Positions 1 through 49,500 of a stretch of 64,000 nucleotides of DNA are shown here, in pieces. The position numbers were made by a program, and so were the translations under genes. The stretch is from Amoebophrya sp. A120 (taxonomy: Eukaryota > Protista > Dinoflagellata): NCBI GenBank assembly GCA_905178155.1, contig CAJINV010000010.1, forward strand, positions 791,188 through 855,187, given 5' to 3'. Position 1 is the first letter of the stretch. The number at the start of each line of letters is the position of its first letter. The notes below the pieces were generated by a model. It was given only the letters and a program-made list of their open reading frames with translations, had not been told where the DNA came from and made no database searches.

Positions 1-3000
1 ACTCGAGAAAAAACGCCACAAAGTTCATCACGCGGGACTTGGTGTGGTAATTGAGAAACGGATTTTTTCCGGGCGTGTTGTCGTTCTCGTCCAGCCGTTC
101 CATTTCCGGATTGATTTTCATCATCTCCTGTATCTTCGCGTTCTCGGTCTGAATCTCCTGAATCATGAACTGCATCAGCTTCGACACCGGAAAGTGGTCC
201 TCTTCTTCCGCTTTCTGCCCTTGCTCGGTGAAGCTGTCGTGGCAATCCATGAGCTCATATGAACCGCAAATATCCCTGGATGTCTGGGAGATTGCGAGAT
301 TTGTCATGCTAGTCTGGCATGACTCTGAACTCTGTATTGCGTGCCCGCGAACAGTTCATCCTGTCTGTCATGCAAAAAGGCGGCTTCTCATGCGGAGTAC
401 GCAACTCTGAGCCACGGAAAAACTTGTCATGCTGGGGAGCGCATTACACTGTGCTCCCTATTCTCTCCCTTGCATCAGAAGTTTCCAGATCCAGACATAT
501 TTGCGATGCATAGCTCATTCAGCCACTCGCGCGTCGTCGCCAGCGTCGTTGGGTTATGCGTTGCAAACATGTCTGGATCTGGAAGAATGAGAGTTTGTCA
601 TGCTTGTCTCTCATGACTCCTAAGTCTGTGATGCATGAGCAGGATGAGAGTCCCTTGCCTGTCATGCAAGAGCACAGTTTGCCATGCAGAACTCGCAACA
701 CGCAGCAGCTGAAGAACTTGTCATGCTTGGCTGCGTATTGCAGTGTGTCCACTATTCCCAAGCCAGCATCACAAGTTTCCAGACATCCAGACATATTTGA
801 ATTTGATAGGGGTCGAGGGACTCGGCGAGCGTGTTCCCAGAAAACTTCAGCGCCGACCTATCAAAAGGAAAAGTCCCCCTCCACATATCAAACAGAAGTC
901 TCTGCTGCTGGATCTCCGTACACGCATCAGATTTGTCTTGCAGTAGAGGACTGCAGGCATGCGCCAAGCCTGAGCCGAGAGGCTTTGGCGTAGCCTCCTA
1001 GCATGAACAACGTCGATGGTGTAGGCCCAATAGCATCACAAACCGCCCTCATAATGCGGCAGATTCTCTGGGTTTGCCTGCATGCAAGACAGCCAGGATT
1101 TGTGGCCACAAATCTGCATCACAGATTTTCAGAAAAAGGCGCTTTCAATATGGGGAGAGGGGATCTTTCCTCACAATACGACCGGTTGTGCTCTGCGAGC
1201 TCGCCGACCGCGGGCGCGATATCAAATGCAAATATGTCTGGGTCTGGAAGCCTGTGATGCTGGGTGGCGTCTCATGATGAGGCTACAAATGCTGGCTCAG
1301 CATGACAAGTTTCTGAGCTCCTAGGTGTTGCCTATTCTGCATGACAAACTGCGCTTCTGCATCACAGAAAAGCGGAGCTCTTGGGTAACGTGCATGACAG
1401 ATTTAAGAATCATGCCGGACAAGCATGACAAACATGAATTCTTCCAGACCCAGACATTTTTACATTTGATACGCGAGGTCCTGGAACAACACGTCCGTCG
1501 TGACAATGTCCTTCTTCTATCACAATGAAAAACGCCGTCACCCCCGAACTTGGGAGCATTCGTATTGCAAACCTTTCCAACAGAAACACGCGCCCGCTTG
1601 CATCTAGCAGCATCACAGATTTCCAATCGTGAATAGCGAAGATTTGTATTGCAACAGATCCCAGCAAGGGCGGCGCTTGCCATGCAAGCAATGCTATATA
1701 CGCCTAGACTCTGCATCACAAAGATAGATTCATATTCCTTTGATGCATGACAAAAAGTTTTCATTGGGAAACTTCGCATCACAAATTATTGCAACTTTTG
1801 GGGGTGGGGGCATTTTTCATGTTGATATCTTCGTGTTTTGCTTCATACCGCCAAACTGCTTTTTCAGTGGGACCCGCGCCTTGGTCGAAGCTTCCTTTTC
1901 CAGCTGCAGGGTGCGATCCTTGAGGTGCTCACGCATGGAGGTGGACACGCCAAACCCGCCGTGTCTTGGCTTGATAGAACCTGTCGTACATCATCGTGGT
2001 GTATTCTCCGTAACGGCGAGTTGCCTACTGCAGATGGCCCTCCATAATTCATAGTACTATACGACAAGAGGCCTGGTACTAAGTTCTTGCACATAGAAGT
2101 AGTTGTACACAAGTGTAGAAGTGATACGGCCCGTCGATTATCTTGGTGCGCATTAGAAACATGAAAAATTTGGGTACTTTTTTTGTGCTGTGCGCGCATG
2201 GCTTTGTCCTTTTTCAGGTAGTCCGCAAGCAAATCTCGCTTCGTCCCCCCCTCGACTTCGATGATCTCCGCCGGGGAGAGTTTTGTGATCATGTAGTAAA
2301 TCAGGTCGAAGATGACCCAGCGCGCAAACCTATCGCGAAACGTCAAGTCGCTGTGCTTCCGCGTGTTGTTTTCCATCGGAAACTCCTCCCCGGCCCACGT
2401 GTTCAGTAGGGGCATCAACTCCAGTTTCGCGTACATCTTCACGAATTTCAGCTGCAAATACCGCCGGTTGTCCGTGTAGCCGGGATCCCCGGGCTTCGGA
2501 TCGGGGATGGCCACCAAGTTATGCAATGCAAAAGCATCGCACTCGTATGAATTATGCACTACAAATTTCCTCAGCATGAGAAATGAAACCAGCCACCCCC
2601 CGGCGAAGGCCGCCGGGGAGGGGGCTGTTCGGTGGAGGTGTTCCGGTGGGGAAGGTGGCGCCAACATCGAATCGCTGCGCGCCGCTACACAGCCAAAAAA
2701 AAAGAGCCCGGCCCATGTTTCGGCATGGGCGGGCACCATGCCCGGCCTTAGTAGCTGCGCGCCATGGGAAAATGCGCGCAGGAAACTATTTCCGGGCGCC
2801 AACGTTCAAGACGCCACAAGGGTGACGAACCTGCTGCCAGCGTGCGCGGGCGTTGTGGGAAAGAAGTTGCGGCCACCCTAGGTGGCCGACCAGGTTAAGG
2901 CGGGGCGCCGCGCCCCCTCCGGGGGACGCAGAGCGGCGCACGCACTTTGAACGGCCGCTCTGATCCGAAAACGAAAACAGTGCCAGCCGGTCGCTGCGCC

Positions 3001-6000
3001 CTAGCGAGCTTCTTTAGGGGGCGCCACGCGCAGACAAGTGGGCAGGCTGTGCTCCTGGAGGTGGTCTGCGAGAGGGTCCGGGAGAGGGTCCCGGAGAGGG
3101 TCCGGGAGAGGTTCAGAGAGGGTCCAGGAGAGGGTCGGAGAGGGTCCCGGAGAGGGTCCGGGAGAGGGTCGGAGACGTCCCGAGAGGGTCCGCCGAGAGG
3201 TAAAATAGAGGTTCCCGGAGAGGGTCGCGGTAGAGGGTCGCCTAGAGGGTCGCCCTATACTACGCACCCTCTCCGACCCTCTACGCCCTCTTCTCCTACC
3301 CTCTACCTGACCTCTCCCCAACCTCTACCCTACCTCTGCGCGCGTATAGCCGCGCTTTAAGGGGCTCTATACGGCTCACCCTCTCCCGGCCCTCTCCGTT
3401 ACCTCTCGTTTTACCTCTCCCCGACCCTCTCATTTTGGCCGACCCTCTATTCTACCTCTCCGACCGTCTATTTTACCTCTATACAACCTCTACCAAACCT
3501 CTACCGTACCCTCTCCAGCCCCGTTTTCTTCCATATATAAATATAGTAATTTGTACTGCAGATTTACCTTCATAATGCATGCATGACTGCAATCAATACG
3601 AGCACGATTATAGTTTTGCACTTCATACAAGTTGCGGAACAGCAACAAACAGTCCGTGACGATGGGGAAGTCGCGGTTTTTTCCCTCAAGTTGCATGTAG
3701 TGCAGCTTCTTCTTCTTGTCGTTTTCGTTTTCCGCCGTCTGCTCGATTTCGTCCCGCATTTCCTGCTCCTCCGCATCGAAATCCCGCAGCAGGTCTATTG
3801 CAAGGAAAAGTCTCCCCCTGCTCCTCCTATCGCGAAGGGATCCGAAGATTGAAAATTTGCGATACTGACCTGTGGCCACCACACATCGCGTCTGTCTTGC
3901 AAGAGAGCAATGCCACAGCTCCCGCCGCATGATTACGCAGGCAATTTGTGATGCTGCTGCCCCGCCAACAGGGCGCAGACGTCTGTCATGCTCAGCGTCT
4001 ACTACCATCGAACGTCCTCCGCGACCAGGCTTTTCCTCTGCCTGCAGTCCTGTACCGCAAGACACAGCTGCTTGGTGTAAGTACACAAGTCCCGCATCAC
4101 AGATTTCCACTTTGATATGGGGACGAGGGGAGATTTTTCCTAACAATAGGGTCGTGCCCGAACTCCACCCCGTCGCCCACGTTATGAACTGCAAAAGTAT
4201 CGTACTAGTAGTAATTGCAATACAAATTAGCTCAGCATGACAAATGGAATTTGTCATGCTGTTTTACCTTGAGAACGAGATTTGTAATGCATAAATCCAA
4301 TTACTACGAGTACGATACTTTTGCACAGGATACACGTGATTGATCAGCATGTCGCACACCGCGCTCATCCGTTCGGTTTTGCAGAGGTCTTCCTTGATGG
4401 ACTGCAAATTTGCGAGGTGATTCCGCACGTACTCGTCGCCGGTGTTCCACTCGTGTTGGTACTCGAGGGTCCGCGCCACATTTTCGAATCCGCGCTTCAC
4501 AATCGGGTCGGTCAACAGCACCATGATGCGCAGAATCCTCTTGGCAATGTATTGTGAAGAAAAATCCCCCCTCCCCATACCAAAGCGAGTACTTCAGAAA
4601 ATTTGTGATGCTGATTTGAGGCCACCAATCGTCTCTGTATTGCCAGAAGGCAAGTCCAAATGCCTGGCCGCGTTCTGCCGGCAATTTGTAATGCTGTATG
4701 GCCTACGGAGGATCTCCTGCCTTGCTAAGTGCCTCCGCAAAAACGCCCCTACTCCGGCCTTGTATCTGTTTGCAGTCCTCTACTGCAAGACAAATCCGAT
4801 TTGTGTACACAAATCCCGCATCACAGATTTCCATCTCGATATGGGGAGGGGGGATTTTTCCTTTTGATACAATGGCCACGTCGTGGTTGTATTTGGTTTC
4901 CAAAATCGGCGCCAGGTTATCAAATGCAAAAATGTCTGGGTCTGGAAGATTGCGAGATTTGTCATGCTTGTCTGACATGACCAAAAAGTTTGTGACGCGT
5001 GTCCAAGAAGAGACCCTTTTGCCTGTCATGCAAAAGCGCAGTTTGTCATGCGAAACACGCAACACAAAGAAGCGCAGATATTTCTCATGCTTGGCTGTGC
5101 ATTACAGACCATTCACTATTCCCAACGCAGCATTACAAACTTCCAGACCCAGACATATTTGCAGTTGATACAGGTGGTCCGGAACCAATTTTAGGTCGCC
5201 TTTAGAATTTATTTTTCAGGATGTTATTCCATTTCGTATAAGTAACCCTAGTAGATATGGTTTCATGGAAATAAGGAAAGAGGTGCAAGGACGCCGGCGC
5301 AACAAGAGATTAAGTACATCCATTTTAATATTGTAGTGCACCTCCATGATCATGATAAAGATACTTGTTGTAGTGAAGAAATTTCAGGATCATGATGCGG
5401 AAAACCAAAAAGGAATCATGAGTCTATCGCAATAAAGCTACATATCAATCCCATGATCTGCCTTCGCTTCTGCAGCGGGTAGCGCAGGATAATGTCGCGC
5501 AGCTTGTTGTCCTAAGTAAAAACGCTCCCATAGTCAAGATGTTGGGGAATGTAGTGCTACACAAATCCACAAGTTCTGGCTGTCGAGCATGACAGGTTCT
5601 GTGGGCTCGTAATGTAGTGGTCCTGTTAGTTTAGCTAGTGCAACTGCATGACAACTCGACTACTGTATCCTGATTCTAGCGCGACATACTCCCAGATAGC
5701 AATAGAAAATGGCTCTCAGGGGGCTGCGCATGACAAAACATTTTACACTTGCGGGATTTGCATGACAACTATGACAACTCTGGGGCGGGGACGTTTTTGC
5801 TTAGGGTATTTGTCCAGCGCCTTCGCGCAGGGTTCGAAGGTGTAGATGTACTGCTATCGAGTGCCAATATCGATCTGGGTCTGGGAAGTTGGAACTCGTA
5901 ATGCTGGTCTTCCTTGCACTCCGGTGAAATCAGTACTTATTGCATGACCGACAAGTCACGCCACATCATGCCATACAAAAATGCAGTTTCTCATGCGCAA

Positions 6001-7957: not shown

Positions 7958-10900
7958 TTATATTTTTTCTACGTCTCCAGCAACATTTTTCCGCAACAAA
8001 ACAACGCCACCTGAGGAGGACGAAGTAGAAGTACTTTCATTTGTACAGCATAAGTAATCACTTTTATATACACCGCAAGCGCTGCATTTTTGCATATCCA
8101 GAATAAGGAACATCAGAACCGCGCGAGTCACCGCCAAAAACACCAGATCGGTGTTGGATTTTTTGAAGTTTTATTGTTTCTCCATCTTGACACAAGCTGC
8201 ACTGAACGTTGGGCAATTATAGATGTTGTGCTGTCAATGAAGACAAGAATTTTTTTACTTCACCTCTTTTCCAGGGGTGCATGTCGAAACGATAGGGACA
8301 GAGACATAAACGCGTCTCCTTCACTTGATGAATTGCACATACTGGGTGGGGACAGAGAAATGTCCAAGAAATCTTCCGCATGTTCCGTGAGTGGTTAATA
8401 TTTTGTTGAAAAATATACTGCGAACTTGGGATACAAGTTTCTTGTGCGTGTTTTGTCACCGGGCGCAAAAAGAAATCTGTAATGGCATTGCATCACATGC
8501 AACATCGCGTATAACTGAGTGAATCTATTTCATCTCATATCACCGTGACCACGCTCTCCACTCGTCCGTCCGCGCTGCCGACCTTGACCAGCATAGTAGC
8601 CTTCTTTGCTTCGCGCTGGTATTTCAGGACCACCGCAGCCGTATGGAATGAGCAAAAGCATCGTAAGTACTCATGCAACTCATTGCATCAAAACCATTGC
8701 ATGACAACATCGGACCACACACGCTACGAACACGACGTCCGGGCGGCCGCGGCCTTCTATGAAGGTCGCGCCCGGAGGGCGATATTGGTAACCAAATGCG
8801 TGCGCGAAAATCTAACCAGCGCGAAAGCCTAACCAGCCGCGCGGCGAAAGCGCGGCCCTGCGGGCCGCGCTTTGGCGCTATTTATTTTTGATTACAGTCC
8901 CACTACTTCTTCTTCAAGCCCCCTGCAGGAGAAACTGGCCCCCTGGCCAGGAAGGTATCTGGGTCATCGGGGGCTTCCGGATTCGCATTCAAAGCTTATC
9001 GCAGGAGCCTGCGGGCCGCCGCGGGCGACAGTAGTTGTCCGCGGCCCTTTGCGATAAGCATTGCAGGCGAAATCCGGTCTGCTATTTCGCAGCGGGGCAT
9101 CCTTTCTAGCCCCCTGCATGACAAACTGGCCTCCTGGCCAAGAAGGTATGTGGCCATCCACCTTCGCAGCGGGGCATCCTTTCTAGCCCCCTGCATGACA
9201 AACTGGCCCCCTTGCCAGGAAGTTATGTGCGAAACCACAAACCCGCGGACCCTGCTGGGCCACCAAAATCGGCCATTTCAGACGCGGCGGAGGTCCCGAA
9301 TTGGTGCCCACAACCCAGAGCAAACGTGGATTTTGGGACATGCCTCTGCCCGCTTCTAATGCATTTTTTTTTCTCCAATCGCGATGGTATGGCGCAAGCG
9401 CGCGCCCGCCGGACCGCCTTTGGTGGCCAGTTTGTAAGCCTGCCGGGGGTTCTCAACTTTTGCCAATTTTTCCTTTTTTTCCAAGTTTCTATGTGGCCGA
9501 AGGGCTCCGGACATTTTCACCGACCGCAGCTGCCTCGCAGTTTTGAAGCCTGCGGAGGGATTGCGCTTTTGCGCATTTTTTTTTCTTTTTCTGGTTTTCA
9601 AGTGGCCCGGGCGACCTGGACATTTTCACCGACCGCAGCTGACTGGCAGTTTTGAAGCCTGCGGAGGGGTTGCGCTTTCGCGCAATTTTTCATCTTTTTC
9701 TGGTTTCCAAGTAGCCCGGGCGGCCTGGACATTTTCGCCGCCCGCACCTGGGTGGCAGTTTTGAAGCCTGCGAAGGGATTGCGCTTTTGCGCAATTTTTC
9801 ATCTTTTCCCATTTTCCAAGTGGCCCGGGTGATCTGCACAAAATCCGACGATTGCTTCCACCCACGTTATCTAGCAACTTTTTGCCATTTTTTTTCAACT
9901 TTTTCCAGTTACGAAGCGGCCCAAGGCTTCCGAACAGGTCGCGGGCCTGCTTCTCCAACGCAGCTGGCCAGCGGGCGGAGCAAAAAATAGTCCGTCTCTT
10001 TTTCAGATACGAAGTGGGCCAGACCGCAAAAATCCTCTTTTTTCACCTTCTCCCGCTTGGTTTCTGCCGTTTTTGCGACATTTTTGACCTCCTGGCCATT
10101 TTCCCATCTGGTCCGCTTTTTTTCCCTTCTCCCGCTTCATTTCTGGCCATTTCCCTGACCTTCACGCCTCCCGGCGGTTGCCCTATATGGTAACGGCAAC
10201 TGCCTTCGCGCTGCGTTTGCTAAAGCAATATCGCAGGCGCGCAGAGCGCGCCCGCCGGCTTCGTGGGCCGGCGCATTTGGTTACCAGACTAGTGCTTTTT
10301 AGCATATCATAGTGAAAAAAGCCCCCACCCCATATCGGAAACGGAAGACGCGCGAATTTGTGATGCTGTATCTCAGTACATCACAAATCGACTTGTATTG
10401 CTAGAAGGCCGAGAGACGAAGCTGCGGCATAAATTGCAGGCAATCTGTCATGCTGTTTCCCACTTGTCTAGTTGCCTCCTGTCATGCTGGAGACGCATAG
10501 GCTTACTCCCACGCTAGGCAGCACTACAGTCCGCATCTTTTGCCTTCTAGCATCACAAAGCTGATTTGTGACAACAAATCTGCATCACAGTTCCTTTTAT
10601 ACAAAAAATATTTGTAATGCAAAAATTCAAATTGTACGCTTACCACGACACTTTTGCGGCGCGTAAACCACCACGCAGCCTTATCAGAAGGAAAAGTGTC
10701 TGGGTCTGGAAGGTTGGAGCTTGTGATGCTAACTTTGGACTCTAAAAGAATCTGTCTTGCATGATTGACCATGATCAGCAAGAGGAGACTAGTTTGTGCT
10801 ACGCGGGGAGGGCGTTTGTCATGCGGAATAGGCATCAGGAACCTCTCTAAAAATCTGCGATGCTAGGGCATGCATTACTGACGTCCTGGGTCATGCAAAA

Positions 10901-12866
10901 TATGCATGACAAACGCCGCAACATTCCAGACCCAGACATTTTTGCATTTGATAAGCCTCGCACGGTGTCGATCTCCAAAATTTGGCTCACCTGCAGGTTT
11001 ACCATCGGCTCCTGTAGTTGCTCGGGTACCACTTTTATCAACTGCAAAAATGTCTGGGTCTGGAAACCTGTGATGCTGAATTGAGCATGATTGAAGCGCT
11101 TGCAATGGCAGCCAAGCATGACAAGTTTTTCAGACAGTTCTGCTGATGCCTAGCACGCATCACAAATTGCGTTTTTGCATGACAAAGAGCCCATCTCTTT
11201 TGCTGCTCAGGCAACACAGATTTTCCAGGAATGCAAGACACGCATCACAAGTTCCACTTTTCCAGACCCAGACATCTTTGCACTTGATAACTTTCTCCGG
11301 GGGGGTTTTCAGCTGAAACCTCCACTCCTCCATCACCGCTTCCCTCCCCTCGAGCCGGTTACTGGCGCCGTCGGGGGATGCACTTTCTTGCTCTATGAAG
11401 GACACGGTCTCGCGCAGGCAGCCTTCCAGCTTTTCGAAGTCGGCGTAGGTGAACGCGTGGAGGAAGAGCAAAGTTCGGGCCAGAAGTTGGTGCGACTTGG
11501 AGGATCTCCGTGTGATGTAGCTGCCGAGACTGTCGCTGTTCGTGTCCGCGCGCATCACTATCATATGTGAGAACGTCCCCACACCAGAGCCAAGTTGGGA
11601 ACTTAGCAACACAAATCCAGAAGCTTTGGACGCCACGCATGACAAGTTGCAGTCCGTAGTGTAGTGCATGTTAGCACGGACAACCGCATCGCAAATCCAT
11701 CTGCTCATCCTGTTTACAGCATTACAGATTCCAAAACACGATTGGATTTGGAAATGCCTCTCGTAGAGCTGCGCATTACAAATGTTCCTGCAATCGCAAA
11801 TCTGCATGACAACTCTGGGGTGGGGACGTTTTTACACAGGATAATCACCTTATCCTTGTTATCGGAGTGCACCGTGATGAGCTGGGCCGATTATTTATCA
11901 AATGCAAAAATGTCTGGGTCTGGAAGAGTGCTAGGTTTGTCATGCAGGTTTTCCATGACCCACGCGGTCTGGCATGCACGGCCTAGCATGACAGGTTCTA
12001 TGAGATGATCTCTATCATGCCTTTCCTGCATCAGAAACTGCCTCTAAACTTGTTCAAAAGTCGTGGACCTCCTTTGGTAATCATGCAACACAAATTCTTC
12101 CACGATCCAGCTGTAGCATGACAAGTTACAATCTTCCAGACATCCAGGGATATTTGCATTTCATATTTTTGCTGCAGTAGAAGCACCGTGATCTCCGAGG
12201 TCGGAAAGAGACCGAAAACCTGGTGGTGTTGAGTTGCAAATATGGTTCGAATCTTCATTTCTTAAATAGCGCACGCACATCAGAAGTCGTTTCTTTTGTT
12301 TCCTCCTGCTTGTTGCTCGAACATATGCTATACACCGGTGTTGACACCTCATCGCAAAGCATGGCAAACTGAGTGAACTGAAAAACAATCAGATTATCAA
12401 CCGCCTTACCGCCTCTCCGTCCTCCTGGTCTTCGACTCTGTGCGCGCACACGTGCAGAAACAAATCGATCTCGCCGACTATCATATGTAAAAACATCGTA
12501 ACCCCATAGTTATCAAGTTTGCTGGAAATCTGCAAGACAAAGCGCCAAGTTTTGGGAGTTATGCATGACATGTTCTTCATTGGCCTTGTAGTGTATTGAT
12601 CCTCTGTTTAGCTAGCTCAGCAGCATCACAGATGGAGCGCAGCGTGCTGATTGTAGCATGACAAACTGCGAAACACGACTAGAAATAAATGATTCTCATG
12701 GGCGGGCTCCGCATGAGAAACATGTTTACCATGCAGATTTGCATGACAACTTTGGGGTGGGGAGGTTTCTACCTAGGATACCGACGACTTCCCGCCCGTA
12801 CGTCGTTACCTCAGCGGTCTTTGTGACTTCCGGCGAGACCTCCAGCAGGGTCGCGGTTTCGGACAT
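7958..12866 (-). CDS. Hypothetical multi-exon protein; 3' half may be disrupted
   Basis: Open frame from ATG 12866 (MSETATLLEVSPEV...) across 5 introners and 2 tiny GT-AG introns to ...LEIDTVRG (10954). Later protein-like pieces (AKKHFIEGRGRPDVVF, AAVVLKYQREAKKATMLV) are interrupted by degenerate introners and a Helentron-like insertion. 3' end uncertain. Confidence 0.55.
8763..10290 (-). mobile_element. Helentron/Helitron2-like non-autonomous element, copy 1
   Basis: Asymmetric 15-bp subterminal IR TGGTAACCAAATGCG (8786-8800 / 10272-10286), hairpin CGCCC-GGA-GGGCG, insertion at CACT^T with no TSD. Confidence 0.8.
10306..10666. mobile_element. Degenerate chimeric introner (B-like left end, D-like right end)
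   Basis: Ends do not match and there is no TSD pair. Confidence 0.5.
10682..10953. mobile_element. Introner family A
   Basis: TSD AGCCT. Confidence 0.9.
11036..11289. mobile_element. Introner family A
   Basis: TSD ACTTT. Confidence 0.9.
11559..11843. mobile_element. Introner family C
   Basis: TSD ATCAC. Confidence 0.9.
11896..12165. mobile_element. Introner family A
   Basis: TSD TTATT/TTTTT. Confidence 0.88.
12479..12780. mobile_element. Introner family C
   Basis: TSD CCGAC. Confidence 0.88.
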
Positions 12867-13440
12867 GATCCGAAGGGGGGGAACAAGAAGTTCTGCAATA
12901 TGAAAATTTTATATGCGGAAGATAGACGATATGTGAAAGAGTTTTGGAAAAATGAACTAGTACCTACTCGACCACGGGGGGCGTAACACAATACGGTCAC
13001 GCTCAATGATTCTTTTGAACACGGGGATGCCGTAGTGATAGTTGTACTGAAAAGTTTTTTATTTCTATTTGAAGTTGAGTCCTTGAGTAGCTGCATTTTT
13101 CAAATCACCGATGAAGCTACGAGCTGTTGTACCCGCAGAACGGCAAACCTTATTCTTATGACGTGATTATTCAATATCAATCCACTAACACCAGTACGAA
13201 TTATCTACGCGGTGAACGCAACAGGAAACGAACCAGCCTTGGACGAGGAACGATTGCGATTTGTGCACGAAAAAAGCTAAAACAGTACGAAACGACGGGA
13301 CGAATGAATGGAAACATTTGACGCGCGACCAGATGCGTTTTTTTGATGTGCCGCGCAGATGTATTTGGATCATAGACGAAACCTTACCGAGGAAACGCGA
13401 GGTCGCCCGCGGCGAAACGCTTCGCTTAAAGCATAAAAAG

Positions 13441-25624: not shown

Positions 25625-25776
25625 GTAGAAGATGAATCGACCCTCAGTTGTACCAGTTTTATATGATCCTCGGTGGAACGAATACTATTTTTTGCAAGAA
25701 GTACAACAACTTGCAATTCTCCTGGTCATCTGAATGCTACATCATGCTCCAGTTGTCTTCATGCTTCGGACGTATT

Positions 25777-31672: not shown

Positions 31673-33179
31673 ATCTGGTAAACCAAAGAACGACCGGTTA
31701 TTTTCAGACGGAGAAGCAGATGCAGTACAACAACGAACGTCAACGTGAAGAAGCTCCTGCCCATGCAACTGGGCTGGCAAATGAATAATAATTCGGAGGG
31801 TTTTGAAGAAATACGACGAATTTGAATTCGACCGTGGTGTTTTATTTGCAACACCCATCCTGTCGAGAGTGAAAGTATCGACAAGCATGCTGGTCTCACT
31901 TTTGTACGTACGGAGTTTTTTACAGCGGAAGGCATGAAGATTTGAAAAAATACGGAGTTTGTATCTTGTCACAATCTTGTTAAGGATTTAATGCACTGAG
32001 GTCTACCAATTATGAGCCTTTTTTTTTTTGCGAGTTTACCTTTTTCGCTTTCGAGTTCTTGTTAACATTTATTCGGACATGCCGGAAGATGTCGTGCATG
32101 TTTACAACACGACCCGGAAAGAGCTATATGTTTTTCTCTTTAATTCTATTTTTCAATTTAGGTTAACGTTACGTCGTGAACCAGCATTGTATAGTTTCAA
32201 AAACCACTGCTAAAAAGTAGTCAGTTTATCCCTAAATATTTTTCGTGCAGATTTGCTAAGTATATGGTTCACTAGAGTGAGGTCGAGAGCCTTGCGATTT
32301 TTTGTTCTTGTTCTTAAGTACCCTCATAGATATGCAACTACTATTTTCATTGATGTGCAGCTCGAAACTTCATCTTGAAATGAAAAAATAAACAGCGTAT
32401 GTTGAAGCACTTTGTTTTGAACGTGTGTGCAGAAAAATTTTGATGACGACTCGTCAACGATTCCCCGTGACAAGAATCGATGCGGTTTTTCAAATCGCGC
32501 AACAGTGTGACTGCTAGATCGTGTGCAACAGCAGTAGCAGTAGAAGACTTTGTGCGTTTAGGAAGAAATTTGGCTTGCTTCTTTTTCCTTTATCCAGGAC
32601 CCGAAGCTGCTGAGGAAACAACTTTGTCGAGCGATGCGTGAGCAGTGTGATTACGATTAGTTAGTAGAGAGGGCGCAAAATAAATATCGTGTGCGGGTGG
32701 AAAACGTAGCCTGCGCGTGTCGGGTTCGCTCTAGTTCTTTCTGCTGGGCGAGATTCTGGGGCACCAACGTGATCGCCGCCCCAGTTTTGAAACGGGCGGC
32801 GCGCCACGGGGGCGTTTTCGGAGCGAGGGGCTTTGGCGGGGGCGATGCGGTGCGCCGATAACTTCGGGGCGTTGATGCTCTCCTGGTGCCCGCGGGCGGT
32901 GCTTTTGGCGCCGGCGGGGCGGCGGGCGCGGGACGCCCGCCCTGTGCCGGCGCGCGCCTACCCGGGCTACAGGCTGCGCCCACATTCTTTTCGGGTAGTC
33001 GGCGTCTGAATGGCCCGCGAGCATCCGGTCGCCATTTTGGCGTCCCCGAGCGCGTGACGTGGCTGGCCAGCGCGGCATGTTTTGGTCTCTACGTTCCGCT
33101 TATGTCGCCAACTGGTGCTCCTGGTCGAGCAGTTGCCCCGCTCCGGTAACAAAGAGGATGGCGTGGCTTCTTTTCTTGC

Positions 33180-36100
33180 ATGCTGGTTGTACCACCTTGT
33201 ACTACTACAGCCACAACGAGTAGTACTATTAGCAAATCGAAAATTTTTTCAATATTGCAACGACCTCAGAAGTTCAAGTTGTCCTGTGCCATCGTGGTCA
33301 GCTCATGTGCCATGCACCCACAGAAATTCTCTCGTCACAATCTCGGGCAACGCATCTTATTTCGCATCCGCCGGTCCGGAGCCTGGTACAACCGCGCACC
33401 TGCGGCAGAAGTGGCGGATTTTTTCCAACAGTCCCCGGCGGAGATCATCAGAAATTCTGGGAGCAGGTCCACTCCTCGCGACCACCTCCTCCACCACACA
33501 GCCGCATTCAACGGGCCCAAAAACCGCGAGTGGCGGCGGAAATGGCGGCAGCGCGCGAAGAAAGCCGCGGTGGGCGGCACCGTGCTCGCCATCGCGCTGG
33601 AAGCCCACAATCTTTATGCACTGCAAAAACGTCTGCGTCTGGAAGGACGCGAACTTGTCATGCTAAGTCTGCATAGTACAAAAATTTGCGTTGCAAGATC
33701 ACCAAAAGCTGTCCACTTTTGAACAAGTTTAGAGGCAGTTTGTCATGCAGGATAGGCATGAAAGAGACCTCTCAGAACCTGTCATGCTAGGTCCTGCATT
33801 CCAGACCTTATGGAGCATGGAAAATATGCATGACAAGCTTGCAATCTCCCAGACATCCAGGGATATTTGCGCTGTATAATCTTCTTTACGACACCATGAT
33901 CACGCTCGAGCGGGGCGGCACGCGCGCCGCCGAGGTATCGAAGAAAAAAACATTGTTGGTGTAACTTTGTGATGCACAACATGCAAAGTCATATTGGCTG
34001 TCATGCTGGGCATCCATGGTAAGGTCCATTCAATCGCGTTTTCACGTACAATCTGCGCATGACAGGTTTTTCCTCTCATGCCAGACAAAGTTGTAATGCT
34101 GTTCCTCCAAAAAAGTTACACTTACAATCTTTTTTTCTTGGATACGAGGCGGCCGAGGAATACTTGCGGCAGTACGACTATTCGGAGCATCAAGAAGATG
34201 GTCAGGTTTCTAATGGTACACAGCACTCGCCCGGCCATCATGCTTCTCAACACCCGCCAGTCTGTAGCAGCTGCTGTGCCATTGAAGATAATATTTTAAA
34301 CACACACAATCACAAGAAAATGAATACAAAACTCACGCTCCTGCAACGGCACCAGCAGTCCGCGAAGCAGCGGGCCTGTTCCCAGGCGAGCCTCCCGGTG
34401 ACCGAGAGCCAGACGGTATCAAATGTAAAAGTGTCTGGGTCTGGAAGAATGCAACTTGTCATGCTAAGTCTGAAGCATCCAAAAATCTGTGCTGCATGAT
34501 TACCAAACGTCGTCCAGTTTTGACCAAGTCGGGAGGGAGTTTCTCGTGCAGGATAGGCATGAGAGAGATCGCGCAGAATCTGTCATGCTAGGTGCTGCAT
34601 TCCAGACCTCATGGGTCATGAAAAAGCTGCATGACAAATCGCGCATTCTTCCAGACCCAGACACTTTTACATTTGATAGACGGGCAACCTGGAACTCGAC
34701 CGGAACGTGACGCGATGGCTATCAGAAGGAAAAATCCCCCCTCCCCATATCGAAAACGAAATTTGTGATGCTGTGTTTGGGTACACAAAATTGTGTTGCA
34801 GTAGAGGACTGTACGCAGATCGTAAGCCTAGGTAAGGGCCTTTTGGTGTAGGCCCCTAGCACGGTAGACAGCTACCGTGTAGGCCTGGCAGCATTACAAA
34901 TCGCCTGCATAACGAACGCGGCGGACAGCCCGGGCGTGTCTTCTTGCAAGACAGACCCGACTTGTGCTCACGAATCTGCATCACAAATTTTCAGGACGGC
35001 GCGCTTTCAATATGGGGTGGGAGGGGGGATTTTTCATTTTCATAGTGGCGCGAAAAAATCTTCGCGCGGGCGAGCGGCCGGTGTGTCGAGCTGGGGGCGG
35101 GCGGGTGCGGTGCGGTTTGGCGAAATTTAGAGGTTATCAAATGTAAAAGTTTCTGGGTCTGGAAGATTGCCAGGTTTGTCATGCACATTTTGCATGACTC
35201 CTGATGTCTGTGATGCATGCCCTAGCATCACAGAGTCTGTGAGGGATTCCTGATGCCTATACCGCATGACAAATGCTCTGTCCGTGTAGCAAAACTTGGA
35301 CTCTCTTTGCTGCTCATGCAATACAGATTTTTTTAGAATCCAAAATCAGCATGACAAGTTGGATTTTTCCAGACCCAGACATTTTTACAGTTGGTAGAGG
35401 TGTTTCAGAAGTGGAACCGCATTGAGGAGTTGGTTGTCGTGGACGGGAACAGGAAGCAGTTGGAACATCTGTATGCTATGTAAAAACGCCCCCACCCCAG
35501 AGTTGTCATGCAAAAATGCATGCTCAGAATGTTTCTCATGCGGAGCCCCAGGAGAAGCGATTCCTAGTCGTGTTGTGGAATTCGTAATGCTCCAATCAGC
35601 ATAATAGGCTAGATTTGCGATGCTTCTGAACGAGCTGAACAGGATTACACTACAAGGCCAAAAATCTTGTCATGCGCAACAGCCTAAGCTTTTTGAGTTG
35701 TCTAGCAGATTTCCCAGCTTGCCTATGGGGCGGGGAGGCGGTCTTTACTCAGGATAGTCTGAAGCAGTTGTTTCGTAACGATTTTTCTGACCCTTCGCCG
35801 ATGAAGAAGAAGAACTCTAGTGAGAGCAGGAGCTGCAGGGAAATATTAAACACGTCTACTTCATCTGCTCGTCCGGAGCTCGCCGTCTTGCAGCCCGGGA
35901 CGACAAGCGAAGGAGGCTGCACTAGTACGCTTCTTCAGGAGCGGCCGACAGCCCCCTCGAGTGCGAAGAAGAAGAAGAGCAATTTCAGGGTGCAATTCGT
36001 GCGTGCAGACGCGGCAGCTGTGCAGAAAAAAGAGCTCCTGAGAGAAGTTGTAAATGACCTGCACCATCGATCCACCGTCGATCGTCCCAATTTCGATACC

Positions 36101-37685: not shown

Positions 37686-40600
37686 ATGTTGACCACCACC
37701 GCTGATGTACCAACGGTAGCGAGGGCCGCCGCCGCGCAAATTTCTACCGCGGGGGAACAAGTCGGCGCAACACAGCAAGCGGCGCGAACAAGAAACAGTG
37801 TTCATCTTCTAAATCCCACGTCGTCCTCTCTACTTGCCGAAGTAGTAGACCTCGTGCCCGGAAGTGGTGTTGGTTCTACTTCGGAGCGGAAAACAAGCTG
37901 CTCCGCGCAGAACGCGCTGTCTCAAGGCGATACCACGCTGGCCGCGGGGGCTATCACCACGTCAGGAACATCACCATCTTCAGTCTCGTCGTCGCCAACC
38001 CACGACGTGGAGCGGGGGCAAATAAAAAGCACACCAGCTGCGTCGACTTTGACGCCTAGTATGGTCGTTGCGCAGCAGGGACCAGGCCCCGCGGCTACTA
38101 GAGAGCAGAAGGAGCAGCTGGTTCGTGATGTTACTAATCGGTCAACACGTCCTATCCCTATGCTCTCGGAGGTGGAGGCGCCGTCGACAGCAGTTGTTCC
38201 AGGTAGCAGGGGGAGTAGTTCTCTGTCAACCTGTACCGAAAAGAAAATGTTGGTCACCGACCGTATCACCCCTGCGTTTTTCAGGGTGGAGAGGAACTAC
38301 CTCCACGATGTTGACAGGACACTGCCTGGTGAAACAACAGGACGAGCAGTAGACCACAGTTTTACTAGCGGAGATGCTGATGGCCCACAACTTCTCGTCG
38401 ACAGGAGCAAAACAAAATTCCTCCCCATTCTCACGGTCGGGGACGGGGACTTGTCCTTCTCCCGCGCCTTGCAAATCTCCAACCCGGAAGTTCCCCTGGT
38501 CGCGACGGTGTTTGAATATCAAATGCAAATATGTCTGGGTGTGGAAGACTGCGCAACTTGTGATGCAGATTTTCCATGACCCACGAGGTCTGGAATGCAG
38601 GACTTAGTATGACAGATCCTGTGCGATCTCTATCATTCCTGTTCGGCATGAGAAACTCCCTTGGTCAAAAGTCGACAACTTTTGGCAATCATGCAACACA
38701 GAAGTTTACAGGATGCAGACTTAGCATGACAAGTTGCAACCTTCCAGACCCAGACATATTTGCAATGCATACTGACGCGTATGAAACCATCGTTGCGAAG
38801 TACCCCCACAGCCGCGAGCGGATCGAAATCCTGGAGAAAAATATGCAAGAAACAAACTGTGTAAGTGTAAGTCTGTGATGCAGAAAATGCAAAAGAGTTA
38901 CACTTGTCATGCTCCACATGCATGCTAGGCTCGCTTCCTACGTGTTTTCCCGTCCTATCTGCGCATGACAAGTTATTTTTCCTGTCATGGCAGACAAACT
39001 TGTCATGCTGTTTTCCCAAGAGACGGACCTACACTAACGCAGTTTTTTCCTTCGATAAAAAACGGCGCCACCGTCCTGTTCGGCGTGGACGCGCGGCGAC
39101 TCCTATCCTATGTAAAAACATCCCCACCCCAGAGTTGTCATGCAGATCTGCAAGCGCAAGAGCATTTGTAATGCGCATTCCCATGAGAGGCATTTCCCAT
39201 CGTATTTTGGAACTTGTAATGCTGTAAACAGGATAAGGAGATGGATTTGTTATGCGGCTCCCCTTGCTAAACTGCATTACACTACAGCCTGCAACTTGTC
39301 ATGCGTGGCTCCCAAAACTTCGAGGTTTGTGTTGCAAAGTCCCCATGTTGACTCTGGGGTGGGGACGTTTTTACAAATGATAACTCCGGACGCATATTCA
39401 ACGAGACCGGATCTGTCGTCGTGCGGAGCAGCAGGAGAGCAGCACTTCTTCCTCTTCTTCTTTTTCCGCGGACAAAGGTCTTGCAGCCAAAAATTCTGAT
39501 GATCCCTGTCGTGGTGCGACAAAAGTAGGAGACCAAGTAGGAGCAGAAGAACTTCTACCTCTTGAAGCTGACACGTCGTCCTCGACTTCGGGGAAGTCGC
39601 CGGCCGGGAGTGGTAGGAAGAGAAAAAACATTGTCCCTGAGCAAGATCTCTTCGCAACAGCAAGCGCCGGATTCGCCCGCGTTGTGTTCCAGTTTCCGTT
39701 ACTCCCCGCGATGACGAAGGAGCAGTTTGAGAGCGCGCCGTCGAGGGATCCAGTCCTGAACAACCGCCTGATGCTGCTAGAGTTCTTGTTGGAAGCGGAG
39801 GAGTTGCTGGACAAAGATTGTGGGGTCGTGCTGATCACGAATAAGGACGTGCGGCCGTACACCCTGTGGCGCTTGCACGACATATCAAATGTAAAAATGT
39901 CTGGGTCTGGAATATTGCGAGATTTGTCATGCTTGTCTGGCATGACAAAAAAGTTTGTGATGCGTGTCCAAGAAGAGACCCTTTTTCCTGTCATGCAAAA
40001 ACGCAGTTTCTCATGCGAAAAACGCAACACAAAGAAGCGCAGATATTTCTCATGCTTGGCTGTGCATTACAGAGCATTCACCATTCCCAACACAGCATTA
40101 CAAGTTTCCAGACCCAGACATTTTTACATTTGATACGACATACTGGACCACCACACTCTCACCTCGTCCGCGCCGTCTGAACGATGCGAGCAGGAGGACA
40201 AAAATCGGGGCGGAGCAGAGCCGCCGAGACCGGAAAATGAATTCTCCACCTATAATAGTACTGCTTCAGCATCAACAACACGACCACCAGAACCTCCGGA
40301 ACTAGATGATACCACAGCAACTTCTTTGCAGTTTCTGGGCAAAATCCCGCTGAGAATGGAGGATTTTCCGGGCTACTTCTTCCAAAATGTCGACCGGGAT
40401 TCCGCGGTGAAAGATACCATGGGGAAGTCCTTCCTGTACGGAAGTAGTAGTAGATATGGAACTGTCAGGATCGAAATTGACAAAATCGAAAAATGTGTGA
40501 TGCATAAAATGCATGACGCAAAATACGTGTGTTGCAGAACAGGCAAGTGAGGCCGATTGTAAGCCTGTTTGGGGTTTTTATAGCTCGAGCTGCTAAAGCA

Positions 40601-41446
40601 GCATGAGAGAATCTTCAGCCTTCTTTGCCTAAACAGCATTACAAACTGGATTTAGGCGCCCCCAGAATTTGTCATGCGCCACTTAGAAACTGGGTTCGAA
40701 CTGGAATCCATTTTATGCATGACAAATTATTTCGATTTTGCCAATTTCGATTCTGACACTTCCATAGTAGATTGTTGTCGCAACAGAACAAGACGACCTG
40801 TCCACCGTCGTCAGAACTGTTAAACGTTATTCTCCAAAAAGCCGACAAGTGCGGAAAGCTGCACGTAGTTCAGCCGCCGTTTGAGGAGAAGACGACCAAC
40901 AAGAAGGATAACTCTGCTCAAATGGCGGAAGATGGAGCTGCAACAGCAGAAACAGGGACCGGATTGTTCTCCGACAGAAGGGTTGCGATAGCGAAAGATG
41001 GGAGCAGTTTGTTGTCCAGCAAAACCCTAACTCCTCCAGAAGTGCGACAGAAAAACCTAAACGCGAGGACCAGTTTTTACTGCGTGCCGTGCCAGATCGG
41101 GCCCTTCACCAGCGAAAAGGACCTGCAGAGCCACGTGGCTTCCAAGAACCACCAGCGATTTGTGCAGACAGACGCGGCCTGGACGCAGATCGTCGCAAAA
41201 ATGATGGCGGAAAGGGATTATACAGCGAGGCTGTGTTGCGCAACTGCTAGTGCCAGGACGTCCAGCAGGGAAGATCGGCATGTTGTCACATTGGAAGCTC
41301 ATAGTCCTGTCGCCGCAGAAGCAGCTGGGCAAGAGAGAAGCGGCGAAAAAGCCACTAAGCGACAAAGAACGACAAACTCCAAAGATTCTGATGTTGATGA
41401 GACAAGCACGAAGATGACGGTGACACTTGTTTCTTGTGCTTCATAA
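37686..41446 (+). CDS. Bmt5/DUF2431-like rRNA uridine-N3 methyltransferase domain protein with C-terminal C2H2 (U1-type) zinc finger
   Basis: ILTVGDGDLSFSRAL, AKYP, GATVLFGVDA, RVVFQFP, NNRLMLLEF, PYTLW, FPGY; FYCVPCQ...LQSHVASKNH. Open across 5 introners. Confidence 0.82.
38517..38771. mobile_element. Introner family A
   Basis: TSD TTGAA/CTGAC. Confidence 0.85.
38842..39057. mobile_element. Introner family H
   Basis: TSD AAAAA. Confidence 0.88.
39104..39382. mobile_element. Introner family C
   Basis: TSD ACTCC. Confidence 0.9.
39883..40135. mobile_element. Introner family A
   Basis: TSD CGACA. Confidence 0.9.
40455..40766. mobile_element. Introner family G
   Basis: TSD GTAGA. Confidence 0.9.
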
Positions 41447-42624: not shown

Positions 42625-44521
42625 ATGACCAAAACCGCGCAGAAGCTGTTCATTTCCTCCGCCGCCCTGGCGGCAGCGGAGAAGAAGATGCAGGCACCAA
42701 AAGGAAAAATCCCCCCTCCCAATATCGAAACGCGTTTTCTGATTTTGGATTTGCGTACACAAATACGCTTTGTAACGCAGGAAGGCACTGCGGCCAGCTC
42801 CTCAGCCTAGGGAGGGGCGTTTGGGTCTAGTTGCTCAGCATTGCAAATGCCTGCCCTCTAGGCCCAACAGCATGCCAAACCGCTTCCATAAACATAATGG
42901 TCGGAGGCCTTTGCCCTTGTCGTCTTGCAAGACAAATTTTTGGCCAGCACAAATCAGCAACGCAAATTTTCGGGGAGGGGGAAACTTTCCTTTCAATAGG
43001 AGGAGGACCGTGCGAAGAAAATGACTTGGAGCGGTCACGAGACCGAGGGGCAGCTGGAGCAGGCCGACACGCCGCCGATCAGCCCGTCGAACTGGGAGCC
43101 GGTATAGAAATGTACTTGCTATGATCCATGAATAGCTTCAAGCGTAGTTTGCAAATAATAACATGTCTGGGTCTGGATCTGGAAATTTGTGATGCTAAAT
43201 GATAGACGAGTCTGAGACGACGTCCAAGTGCATCACTGCAGTATGATTCCTCATGTTGTCTCATCTGAAACAGCCCACGAAGGGTGCCCCGTACGCGCAG
43301 GGCACCTGTAACAGATAAAAGAGCGAGAAAACATGCGGTGCGCAGTAGATAGTTACAATTCGGACCCGACAAAAGGGCAGAGCTTGGGTGTGCTTCCGGC
43401 GCCATACAGAAGGTCTGTATGGCGAAAAAGAAGCAATAAAGCGCTTGCGTTTTGTGACTGTAAGTACCAGACATGCGGCAAAACATCAGATTCTACTTTT
43501 CCAGACCCAGACATATTTACAGCTGACGCAATGAATGTATAGGGGCCGTCGGCTACGTCCAATTGTAATTCTCGATAGTCGCATTTTCTGAAATTCAAAA
43601 TATTATACCAAACAGCGCCAGCAACCCAGCAACCCAGGAAGAGTTTCTGGAGGTCGATGCAGCAACCCAGGAAGATTTTCTGGAGGTCGATCCAGAAAGC
43701 TCGGAAGAGTTTCTGGAGGACGATCTAGCAGCCGAGGAAGATTTCCTTCAGGTCGATCCAGAAAGCCCGGAAGAGTTCCTGGAGGTCGATCCAGCAACCT
43801 ATAACCCGCTCAGGTGTTACAGTCTCCAGCGTTACAATAGAGTCTGAGATTTGTCTTGCATGATGAGCATGACAGACTCGCAGAGCGTTCCACTTTCTGC
43901 AAGACAAATTTCGCCAGGTTATAGTGAGGTTTGGGGCTCCGGAACTTGTCATGCGCAATCCTATGAGAGTTGGCTAGATCATGCACTCTTGCGTCACAGA
44001 TTTCCATATCCTATTGCAACGTTTGAGGTTGTAACACTTGAGCGGGTCATACAACCCAGGAACAGTTTCTGCCGGAAGAGTTCCTGGAGGTCGGCAGCTA
44101 CCAACAGGAGGATCTTAGCCGGGGCTCGAGGAGGAGGAGGAGGAGGAGGCGGGGGCGTGGCTCACTAGCGGGAGCATTGGCGAAAAAAGTGGTGAAAGCA
44201 GCGGCGGACACAGCGGCGAAAGCAGCGGCGGACGCAGCGGCGGCAAAAGCGGCGAAAGAAGCGGCGCAAGCTGCGACGAAATATACCGCCGCAAAAGTAG
44301 CCGTGACTAAAATAAAGGAGGCAATCAGTTCTAGCACACCCGCACCGAGGACGCCGCCGACGACGCAGACGAACGCGCCGACCACGACGCAGACGAGCGC
44401 GTCGACGACGCAAGCGAGCGGTGGGGATGGCGGGTGGAACCCGTTTGGGTGGCTCCAGCCCCTGTGGACGATTTTCGGCACCCGTGACCCGGCTCTTAGT
44501 GCCGGCGTCATCTCTTCCTGA
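42625..44521 (+). CDS. Hypothetical protein with acidic 11-aa repeats, Arg tract and Ala/Thr-rich tail
   Basis: MTKTAQKLFISSAALAAAEK...; 33-bp repeats encode TQEEFLEVDxx and join in frame across introner 43800-44051 to ...AKKVVKAAAD...GVISS*. Middle junctions unresolved. Confidence 0.5.
42695..42998. mobile_element. Introner family B (aged)
   Basis: TSD GCAGG/GGAGG. Confidence 0.75.
43144..43528. mobile_element. Degenerate introner family A
   Basis: TGTCTGGGTCTGG / CCAGACCCAGACA cores remain; termini eroded, ends approximate. Confidence 0.6.
43632..43798 (+). repeat. 33-bp coding tandem repeat
   Basis: About 5 copies of ACCCAGGAAGAGTTTCTGGAGGTCGATCCAGCA-like units. Confidence 0.85.
43800..44051. 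mobile_element. Introner family I (TATAACCCGCTCAGGTGTTA TIR)
   Basis: TSD CAACC. Confidence 0.9.
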
Positions 44522-46554: not shown

Positions 46555-49500
46555 ATGTCTAGCTACGAAGCGAAAAAGGTAGTGGAACTGAAAGCGCTCG
46601 CCAAAGAACGTGGGCTGGCAGAAACCGGGAAGAAAGCCGACCTGATCGCCCGACTATCAAATGCAAACATGTCATCTGGGTCTGGAAAGGTGGAACTTGT
46701 AATGCGTGTCTTGCTTACCTGAAAATAAAATCTGTGTTGCATGAGCAGCAAATGTTGGGCTGCTTCCCTTGTCATGCAAAAACGCAGCTTGTAATGCGTG
46801 TCACGCATCAGAAGGCGCTTCGGAAGCTTGTCATGCTTCGCTGCCATTGCGAGCGTTGCAAAAATCATGCGCAATTCAGCATCACAGGTTTATTCCAGAC
46901 CCAGACATGTTTGCATTTGATACCGACTGCAGGAGTACGACAAAAAGAAGGCCGTGGAACAGAAAAAGAAGTCTCTCTCTCCCAACGTTTCCCCGAAAAT
47001 GTCACCCGCGTATCATTTGTAAAAACGTCCCCACCTTCCCAGAGTGGTCATGCAAATCCGCATGCTGAAAATATTTCTCATGCGGAGCCCCACGAGAGGC
47101 ATTTTGATTTTCTAAGTAGTCGTGTTTCGGAATTTGTCATGCTCCAATCAGCATGATGTGCTAGATCTGCTTCACTAGCTAAACAGCATTACAATACGAG
47201 GCCAAAGAACTTGTCATGCATAACTCCCAAAACTTGGAGATTTGTGTTGCAACTTTACCAACTTGACTGTGGGGTGGGGACGTTTTTGCTGAGGATACCG
47301 CGCTGGGAAAGGTTAATGACCCCACCATCACCACAAAAGCGGTCATGGAAGCGCACCACGAAAAGCCGGCCGCGGGGTAAAAGATTATTATACTGCATTC
47401 AATACTTCTTTAACTTACTATCACGGCAGTGATGGTGTAAGCCTAAGCCTATCATGCATGAGAAGTTTATTGTTTACGAGTTCTAGATCTAGTGCGCGCT
47501 GCTCTTCACCGTCCTCCTGCTCGTGCTCCTACAAATACAATTATTGCGCATGAGAAAGGAGATCATAGCCTGCCTTTTGCAAGAGAGACAAACCGATACA
47601 GATCCGATCCCACGGCCATGACGGACGCGGAGCGGGCAAAGCTTATCAAGTGCAAATATGTCTGGGTCTGGAGAGTTGTGATGCTGATACACTAATCAGA
47701 AAACTGAATCCACTAGGGAGCCACGCATGACAAGTTCCTGACAGGTTCAGCAGTGCGCAAACCGCATGACATACAGCCTTTTTGCATGACAAAGAGGAAG
47801 TGCAATTCCAATTCCATCACGTGCATCACAAAGTTCAGAGGTGTATGCGGATTTAGCATTACAAGCTTCCAGACCGAGACATATTTGCAAGGCATGAAGC
47901 TGCGGGCGCAGCGGTTCGGCCTTCCGAACGAGGACGCCGAAAAGGAGAAACTGAAGGCCCGGGCAGAACGATTTGGGCTGCCGAATGAAGATATCCCGAG
48001 CAAAAACATCTACTTACATCTCTCGATAGAACATCAATAGTACGCATATAATCTGTGTTGTTGTGTCGTTGCATGGTACTCAGCACATCAGTTGTGAGAC
48101 CCCCCGCAAGTGGTACGTAGTGTGCCCGATTTGATAGAAGTCGTGTGGCTGTGAACAAAGCTTAGTACATGAAAATTCTTCGCCATGATGCGGAAACCAG
48201 GACGAATGATAAGTATTTATTCCGCATAATGGATACTTGTTGAAGTAGTTTGTTGTAGTGTTATTTGCCTTTTGCATACACGAGATTGAAAAAGAAAAGC
48301 TGAAGGTATAACCCGCTCAGGTGTTATAATCTCAAACGTTGCAATAGAATATGGAAATCTGTGATGCGAGAGTGCATGATCTAGCCAACTCTCATAGGAT
48401 CGCGCATGACAAGAAGTTCCGGAGCCCCAAACACCACTACAATCTGGCGAAATTTGTATTGCAAAAGGTGGAACGCTGCGCGAGTCTGTTATGCTCATCA
48501 TGCAACACAAATTCTAGATTCTGTTGTAACGTTTGAGATTGTAACGCTTGAGCAAGTCATAGAAGGCGCGGGCGGAGCGGTTCGGGCTGAATAACCCAGA
48601 TCTAGAAGAGGAAAAGAAGAAAGCTATGCGTTGCAAATATGTCTGGGTCTGGAAAATAGCAACTTGTCATGCTAAATCCGAATTATGCAAAAATCTGTGT
48701 TGCATGAGTGCCAAAAGCTGTCTACTTTCGACCAAGTTGCGAGGGAGTTTCTCATGCAGGAGGGGCATGGCAGAGACCTCACAGAGTCTGTCGTGCTAGG
48801 TCTCGCATTCCGGACCTCATGGGTCATGGAAAACCTGCATGACAAGTGTACCTGCTTCCAGATCCAGACCCAGACACTTTTGCATTTGATAAAAGCCCGC
48901 GCGGAGCGATTTGGTGAGATGAATAAACCAATATAATTTTGGACTTCAATTATATAGCTGCTACGAAAATGGTATTAAAAATGCTTGTTGCCGATAGAAA
49001 TGAGATGAATCAAGCCAATTCTTGCACGACTATTTTCATCTTTGGAGAAAAAAAATGACAACAGGCATCGTCGCGGAAGCAGACAAAAAGGCGGCACGCG
49101 AGGCGCGGTTCGGTCCGGTTTCTAATGGCACAACGACAAATATGGGAGTGTCAGGATTGAAGTCGTCAAATTTGAAATAGTTAGTGATGCATAAACTGCA
49201 GCCCACAAAGTGCCTGTCTTGCAGAGTAGGCAAGTGAGGCAGATTGTAAGCCTGTTGAGGGGTAGACACTGAGCTGCTAAAGTAGCATGACAAAAGGCGT
49301 CTTCCTTACCCAAACAGCATGACAAACTGGATTTCAGCTTTACCCAAATTTGTCATGCGCCACTAGGATGAAACTGGGTTGCAACTTTCATCCATTTTAT
49401 GCATTACAAGTTATTGTAACTTTGTCGATTTCAGTCCTGTCACATCCATAATGAATAAGCGCACTTCTGGCGGCGGGGCAGTGGACTCCGAGGAGGCAGC

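Follow-up and report, generated by a model that had tools for sequence, protein, structure and literature searches.

Introner Elements of the Window

The 64,000-nucleotide stretch of Amoebophrya sp. A120 that was analyzed, here called the window (contig CAJINV010000010.1, positions 791,188 to 855,187, forward strand, assembly GCA_905178155.1), contains 70 called TAT...ATA introner elements between positions 258 and 63716. These are 145–353 bp in length, and features are given without strand unless one is named. Families of these elements that cannot be aligned with one another carry a common internal sequence, the box. Where the box nearest to an element end faces that end with TGT, its distance from the end is quantized at about 10.5 bp.

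The elements were called by their ends only (TAT...ATA, a terminal inverted repeat [TIR], and a flanking duplication), and the box was not used as a criterion. The finder gave 69 elements; one was corrected and one was added by hand, which resulted in 70 elements in 11 groups. Family A has 27 members, C has 12, D has 11, and B has five. F, G, and I have three each, E and H two each, and J and A2 one each; family letters beyond those of the original prediction, an earlier annotation made from the letters of the window, were assigned in this analysis. An exact 5-bp target site duplication (TSD) was found for 51 of the 70 elements and one of 6–9 bp for none. No strong consensus was seen at the target sites around the 5-bp duplications. 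Being short, non-coding, ended by TIRs, flanked by a TSD of fixed length, and present in multicopy families, the elements have features that define MITEs (miniature inverted-repeat transposable elements), a kind of non-autonomous TIR DNA transposon. A family-weighted logo of the ends revealed a tip, TAT-S-N6-AAAA, that is common to most families; the A run deviates in G, I, J, and K.

Introners of A120 have been described with inverted repeats of TAT, seven variable nucleotides, and at least three A, with direct repeats of 3–5 nt, a length of about 240 nt, and non-canonical splicing (Farhat et al., PMC7789003). The elements of the window match that description in the TAT/A-run repeat, the 5-bp direct repeat, and the non-canonical removal. 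Their lengths also resemble the published family lengths of about 107, 149, 209, 252–261, 277, and 305–321 (Gozashti et al., 2025, PMC12130899). The published introners were sorted into 1,954 or 58 families, mostly with no mechanism assigned in the table rows covered (PMC7789003; PMC12130899).

A search of metagenome contigs, in which a family A end combined with the box served as the query, yielded further loci. Over 11 of 64 parts, the scan gave at least 156 loci from one assembly, 551 kb when merged. The longest stretches that match the window have the size of elements, so the loci represent other places in the genome of the same organism or a close one. The finder called 381 elements in them and none in 377 kb of shuffled sequence. 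These belong to the families of the window, to families K, L, M, and N, and to singletons. Window and extra loci together make up about 0.6 Mb with 451 called elements. Among loci L002–L067, gene strand is uniform in all 23 loci with at least two calls, which fits long co-oriented gene blocks. A scan of viral contigs gave a single match, inside a phage open reading frame (ORF), and it was set down to chance.

Removal from RNA

Fifteen RNA joints were listed for positions 17500–36000, with 53 more not among them. Nine of the 15 skip exactly one element plus 5 nt, and the other six link repeat copies or other places. Three of the nine are covered by raw reads of a cDNA run. A family C element (30256–30535, + strand) is skipped by a 285-nt joint (280+5) with 153 reads, the next family C element (30592–30866, + strand) by a 280-nt joint (275+5) with 229 reads, and a family A element (31006–31270, + strand) by a 270-nt joint (265+5) with 439 reads. 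The same run shows a poly(A) end at 32477, and every element of that transcript stretch is skipped in RNA reads. The single family J element (24204–24429) is skipped, plus 5 nt, in contigs of the RNA run. Removal of each element plus 5 nt in silico resulted in ORFs of 826, 640, 600, 551, and 444 codons, and removal of the element plus 0, 3, 4, 6, or 7 nt did not restore the ORFs. Because of the RNA joints and the restored ORFs, the identification of these elements as introners that are removed at non-canonical junctions, together with one copy of the duplicate, is supported; it is read from RNA joints, for which empty alleles are formally possible.

The Internal Box

The box has a consensus of about 12 bp, AAYY-TGTNATGC, which can be written AAYY-TGT(C/G/A)(A/T)TGC. 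The original prediction held that families with different TIRs all contain it, as GCAT[G/C/T]ACA, and this was borne out. The window has 267 exact sites, and an order-3 Markov model predicts 14.6. By the variable base, 145 sites have G, 59 C, and 63 T; the A variant occurs just five times. The first 69 elements hold 231 of the 267 sites, and the remainder lie mostly in broken or interrupted elements. With nine partial elements masked by hand, a weight matrix located 348 sites within elements (17.8 kb) and 27 in the remaining sequence (42.8 kb). Box density per kb is 12.5 in called elements, 1.0 outside them (uncalled elements included), and 0.08 in long ORFs, so that it is about 150-fold higher in elements than in long ORFs. 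Considering window and extra loci together, 450 of the 451 called elements contain at least one box site.

Once the boxes and the outermost 14 nt were masked, different families could not be aligned (z at most 2.1 between families and 9.6–103 within them, with up to 12 pairs per comparison). The families had been called unrelated. This applies to their bodies, and not wholly to their ends, most of which have the tip in common. Column conservation, a partly circular measure here, is 0.85–0.95 for the box, on a par with the TIR, and 0.67–0.83 for the rest. The tip itself (offset 3) is the best-scoring position in families A, D, L, and N only, and there it looks like a weak box of opposite orientation. 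In D and N this weak tip box is 30–31 bp from the first full box.

Spacing of the Boxes

It had been claimed that the first box starts 32–33, 41–44, or 52–54 nt from the end, equal to three, four, or five helical turns. Thirteen of the 14 offsets listed for this claim were reproduced with an exact 8-mer; the exception is the element at 43800, where the box at 52 is degenerate. The list had taken the end that fits; the other ends give 38 (29081), 45 (33936), 59 (34720), and 47 (17924, by weight matrix). It also mixed orientations, since the box at 33 of the element at 29081 shows GCAT, and not TGT, to the end. With orientations separated, the offsets were examined for first boxes that face the end with TGT at 30–58 bp, with classes taken from the window values of the prediction and slightly widened (32–34, 41–44, and 52–56, or 12 of 29 positions). 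Family A offsets in the extra loci were left out, since the search pattern biases them. Among the non-A ends of the extra loci, 129 of 147 fall in the three classes, and none of the 147 is at 37–38 or 47–51. The window gives 71 of 91 ends. Families absent from the window also fit, with K at 42/43, L at 33, and the element of locus L023 at 42.

At the level of families, 19 family-end modes from 12 families, picked by hand and including one singleton, gave a best period of 10.5 with R=0.86. With one value per family, p was at most 0.00025 at period 10.5 and at most 0.0012 with the period left free. The quantization of the end-proximal, TGT-outward box at about 10.5 bp is thus supported, and the spacing observation of the original prediction is confirmed. 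Its interpretation, a single protein that recognizes TAT ends plus phased boxes, is partly supported. Over the roughly 0.6 Mb the offsets were not smoothly distributed, the families did not align, and the box was not as frequent outside the elements as in them.

A stronger rule than the end offsets was found between boxes. Thirteen of 14 families, all but K, contain a pair of boxes in the same direction 31–33 bp apart (expectation, 2.4 families; P about 1e-10), and so do 342 of 451 elements. The spacers of these pairs have little sequence in common. Inverted pairs recur at 15–17, 34–35, and 45–48 bp, and about 15 bp past the first box of a pair a weak inverted half-site is seen repeatedly. Interior boxes keep spacings of their own (31–33, 15–18, 35, and 47) and not a phase to the end.

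The spacing could have been inherited from one ancient element with arrayed ends that was ancestral to all families, with no present function. The tip shared by most families and the half-site past the first box fit such descent, and deep shared ancestry is likely. However, box and spacing persist where spacers and bodies can no longer be aligned, and the boxes are conserved better than the sequence next to them. Whole-turn differences occur even inside family A, in which the same end has offsets of 33 and 42. Inherited spacing is already weakened as an explanation, and we regard it as improbable.

Individual elements illustrate these rules. The family A element at 1220–1471 is flanked by the TSD CGCGA (1215–1219 and 1472–1476). 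Its boxes are at 1253 (offset 33; 1253–1260, - strand, by weight matrix), 1300, 1339, 1359, 1392, and 1423 (offset 41 from the right end), and the last two are 31 apart; the last five, at the positions predicted, are exact boxes. Family E at 1518–1827 has its right-end first box at 44 and a second one 31 deeper. The first boxes of the family B element at 4550–4869 are at 54 (left) and 44 (right), and the family J element described above has its right-end first box at 33. Boxes at 32 and 63 are present at both ends of the family F element (25157–25327), at the right end of the family C element at 30592, and at the left end of the family H element (33936–34144), which has an opposite-orientation box at 45 on the right. 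The family C element at 30256 has a right-end first box at 32. First boxes are at 42 and 43 in the spliced family A element, at 41 and 42 in the family G element (40455–40766), and at 53 and 52 in the family I element (48307–48561), the one at 52 being degenerate. The family D element (29081–29225) has opposite-orientation first boxes (left 38, right 33) outside the main phase, and it contains a box pair 31 apart.

An extra family with ends like those of B and E, missed by the finder, was seen at 10305–10601, and its left-end first box is at 54. Locus L053 holds a full copy of it, with first boxes at 59 and 43 and a 5-nt duplication. Truncated or end-damaged A and C elements at 26943–27140 and 5506–5809 still keep their boxes.

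Readout from DNA or RNA

The strand of the transcript could be called from restored ORFs for 178 of the 451 elements. In these, the two senses of the box were counted 278 and 269 times in pre-mRNA. Because no bias toward a transcript strand is present, the box is likely read on double-stranded DNA, which argues against a site on single-stranded RNA or an obligatory stem.

If the box were instead an RNA element, a splicing factor could bind it on single-stranded pre-mRNA, or it could belong to the stem, with the 11-bp periodicity of the A-form. The predicted folding of the two elements modeled is good (z of -7.3 and -7.7), some copies of family A show pairing between the left and the right box, and at the element level the fit of a period of 11 is about equal to that of 10.5. 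The even sense counts oppose this, as do the insertion of families into genes in both orientations and the 30 of 178 elements that present one box orientation only, of either kind. In family L both boxes have the same direction and are unable to pair with each other. An RNA role of the box is considered very improbable.

The main rival is a host protein of double-stranded DNA or chromatin that sits on the boxes and marks the elements for co-transcriptional removal or safe read-through. Phasing would then have been selected for splicing and not for transposition, in place of a U1-based signal, which seems to be missing in this lineage. The lack of strand bias fits any binder of double-stranded DNA, the box is found in old and young elements alike, and neither U1 snRNA nor a transposase has been detected in A120 (PMC7789003). 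However, the hallmarks of cut-and-paste mean that the elements require a mover anyway, and the orientation and phase of the boxes relate to the ends that are cut. Most non-canonical introns of the related A25 also end differently (PMC7789003), and A25 has TTA-ended introners. We hold a host mark to be rather unlikely.

Model of the Element Ends

The 5-bp duplications, the density of the box, the unalignable families, the quantized offsets, the 31–33 bp pairs, and the lack of strand bias lead us to favor, as somewhat probable, a box that serves as the double-stranded DNA binding site of a protein that moves these short, non-coding, spliced elements in trans. Each end would have two parts, the tip TAT-S-N6-AAAA, where cutting would occur, and the internal box. 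With the box three, four, or five helical turns from the tip, the proteins bound to each could be on the same face of the DNA, and a second box three turns deeper (31–33 bp) would allow cooperative binding. The spacer between tip and box could vary freely as long as whole turns were kept, so that unalignable families might use one machine. Based on the TA...TA end type, the mover would most likely be a DDE transposase that resembles integrases and belongs to the IS3EU/GingerRoot/Ginger grade, or else a helper DNA-binding protein that works together with it, and the binder may be one protein or several relatives.

Splicing would be a separate step, in which the inverted ends, predicted to pair in pre-mRNA, unite the two 5-nt repeats. 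The ends pair in the predicted RNA of both elements folded. The original prediction held that the TIR may need only to be self-complementary, for removal at the RNA level. In a test for selection on such pairing, TIR mismatches of the G.U and A.C types were counted as 136:112 (p=0.14) with ORF-called strands and 189:140 (p=0.008) with strands extended over loci. The skew of same-direction substitutions in the TIR was 156:131, no different from the 586:548 of element interiors (Fisher p=0.43). Co-variation of the TIR arms is positive in five of eight families, with subfamilies as a confounder. A wider proposal, in which tens of thousands of non-canonical introns of one genome form one modular system, any self-complementary TAT end with a box at whole turns being sufficient, and one protein both mobilizes new, unrelated families and flags them on the DNA for removal from the transcript, appears quite unlikely.

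Several results weigh against a protein acting in trans on phased boxes. No transposase was found among the 14 ORFs of the window or among 107 of the 159 long ORFs (at least 230 aa) of the extra loci, a small sample of about 0.6 Mb in total. Farhat et al. also found none in A120 and argue against mobilization by a transposase (PMC7789003). A search of long elements with the same ends, suggested with the original prediction, was equally negative: the four of the window whose inserts were compared appear to be ordinary elements into which inserts have nested, and one of the four has a PIF1-like helicase. The boxes were predicted to lie on one helix face relative to the ends, and this applies only to the first TGT-outward box. 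At 60–91 bp from an end, boxes are not in phase with that end (R=0.05), which rules out phasing of all boxes. First boxes in the opposite orientation, at 33–37 and 42–48, have no significant phase (p 0.03–0.70); they occur in families D, N, M, and L and, at one of the two ends, in C and H, with no common phase. Over 28–91 bp the family-level p is no better than 0.02. A cruder profile over 25–99 bp has peaks at 9.5 and 11, and not at 10.5, and the three offset classes bound the period to just 10–11.5 or so at the element level. Besides 81 weak sites at offset 3, just three boxes are found in the outermost 30 bp, a layout unlike that of Tn7-type ends. Lastly, the extra loci all come from one assembly and are no independent species.

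The arrangement can be compared to known transposon ends. The TSD of Tn7 is 5 bp, and the ends of Mu have several site copies with helix-linked spacing and a 5-bp duplication.

In Tn7-like VchCAST (Tn6677), arrayed copies of one site are present at each end and the spacing of the transposase sites tracks the helical pitch (PMC10201428); the elements here are alike in this, with putative binding. The first Tn7-like site, however, is tightly fixed just inside the TG tip (PMC10201428), and the first strong box here is 32–55 bp in. Its distance from the end varies in whole turns, and in this it is closer to an accessory site; the elements are also introns, unlike Tn7-like ones. The IS3EU/GingerRoot group has TA...TA termini, TIRs, and a short TSD in common with the elements here; its TSD is usually 6 bp, which none of the 70 elements has, compared to 51 with 5 bp (PMC6839031; PMC10045372). 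For Ginger2/TDD, the TSD is given as 4–5 bp in one of these sources and as 6 in the other. Ginger1 and Ginger2 end in TG...CA and the elements here in TAT...ATA. The parts of both texts that were covered describe no phased boxes. One A120 introner family, known from its description and not its sequence, has integrase-like homology and is annotated "Ginger, 5-bp TSD, TA/TA termini" (PMC12130899). Stowaway MITEs with Osmar (PMC3660474) and coral CMITEs (PMC2872659) are examples of orphan MITEs that borrow one transposase, in which internal or subterminal motifs tune activity and a minimal shared tip may suffice. They belong to other superfamilies (TA or TTAA targets) and are not introns, and the parts of these papers that were covered do not describe helical quantization across families.

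The elements are already published, and we did not find the grammar of the box described in the texts searched. The text searched of the A120 introner papers (PMC7789003; PMC12130899) gives neither a shared internal box nor a spacing rule. The same holds for the other literature text searched, including PMC9860276, PMC11282704, and PMC12005148, with figures and subscription journals outside this scope. The string GCATGACA does not occur in the searched supplement texts of the A120 introner papers. For A120, about 30,000 introners, sorted into about 2,000 families, were reported, with no transposase and no U1 snRNA detected, and their gain and splicing were stated to be open questions (PMC7789003). 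A box and a spacing rule common to 14 families suggest that this diversity may be one system. The box provides a DNA bait for protein pull-down and a sequence grammar to find an autonomous parent, and the introner ends represent an experiment of nature in which the spacer of a eukaryotic transposon end is scanned.

Inserts and Other Features

A 4.1-kb element with family H ends was a candidate for the mover and was rejected. It is a family H introner (52082–56174, TSD CAGTT) that is interrupted near its right end by a nested 3.9-kb insert. The insert possesses an intact ORF of 549 codons (53539–55185, + strand) that encodes a PIF1-like helicase, and not a transposase. This ORF has distant relatives only (best E 9e-13 in a near-length search) and no tblastn match in the extra loci.

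A family D element at 2520–3627 contains an insert of about 950 bp with mirrored GAGAGG/CCTCTC arrays. Part of this insert is repeated in locus L029 (1–353), and locus L023 (505–1608) has a 1.1-kb element with a new TIR type that is filled with similar arrays. The array insert is possibly another mobile element that nests in introners. Family B and A introners at 56936–58699, 60554–62785, and 43150–43530 are enlarged by inserts of 0.3–2 kb. Introners seem to offer inserts a safe place to land.

The region 12800–17900 is free of introners and contains mirrored GC-rich tandem arrays at about 13449–13723 and 16684–16958. A hairpin is present at 15899–16022, and its arm is found again at 8997 (8997–9056). 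A motif of the TGGTTACCA type is repeated near 8786, 10278, 15035, and 16131.

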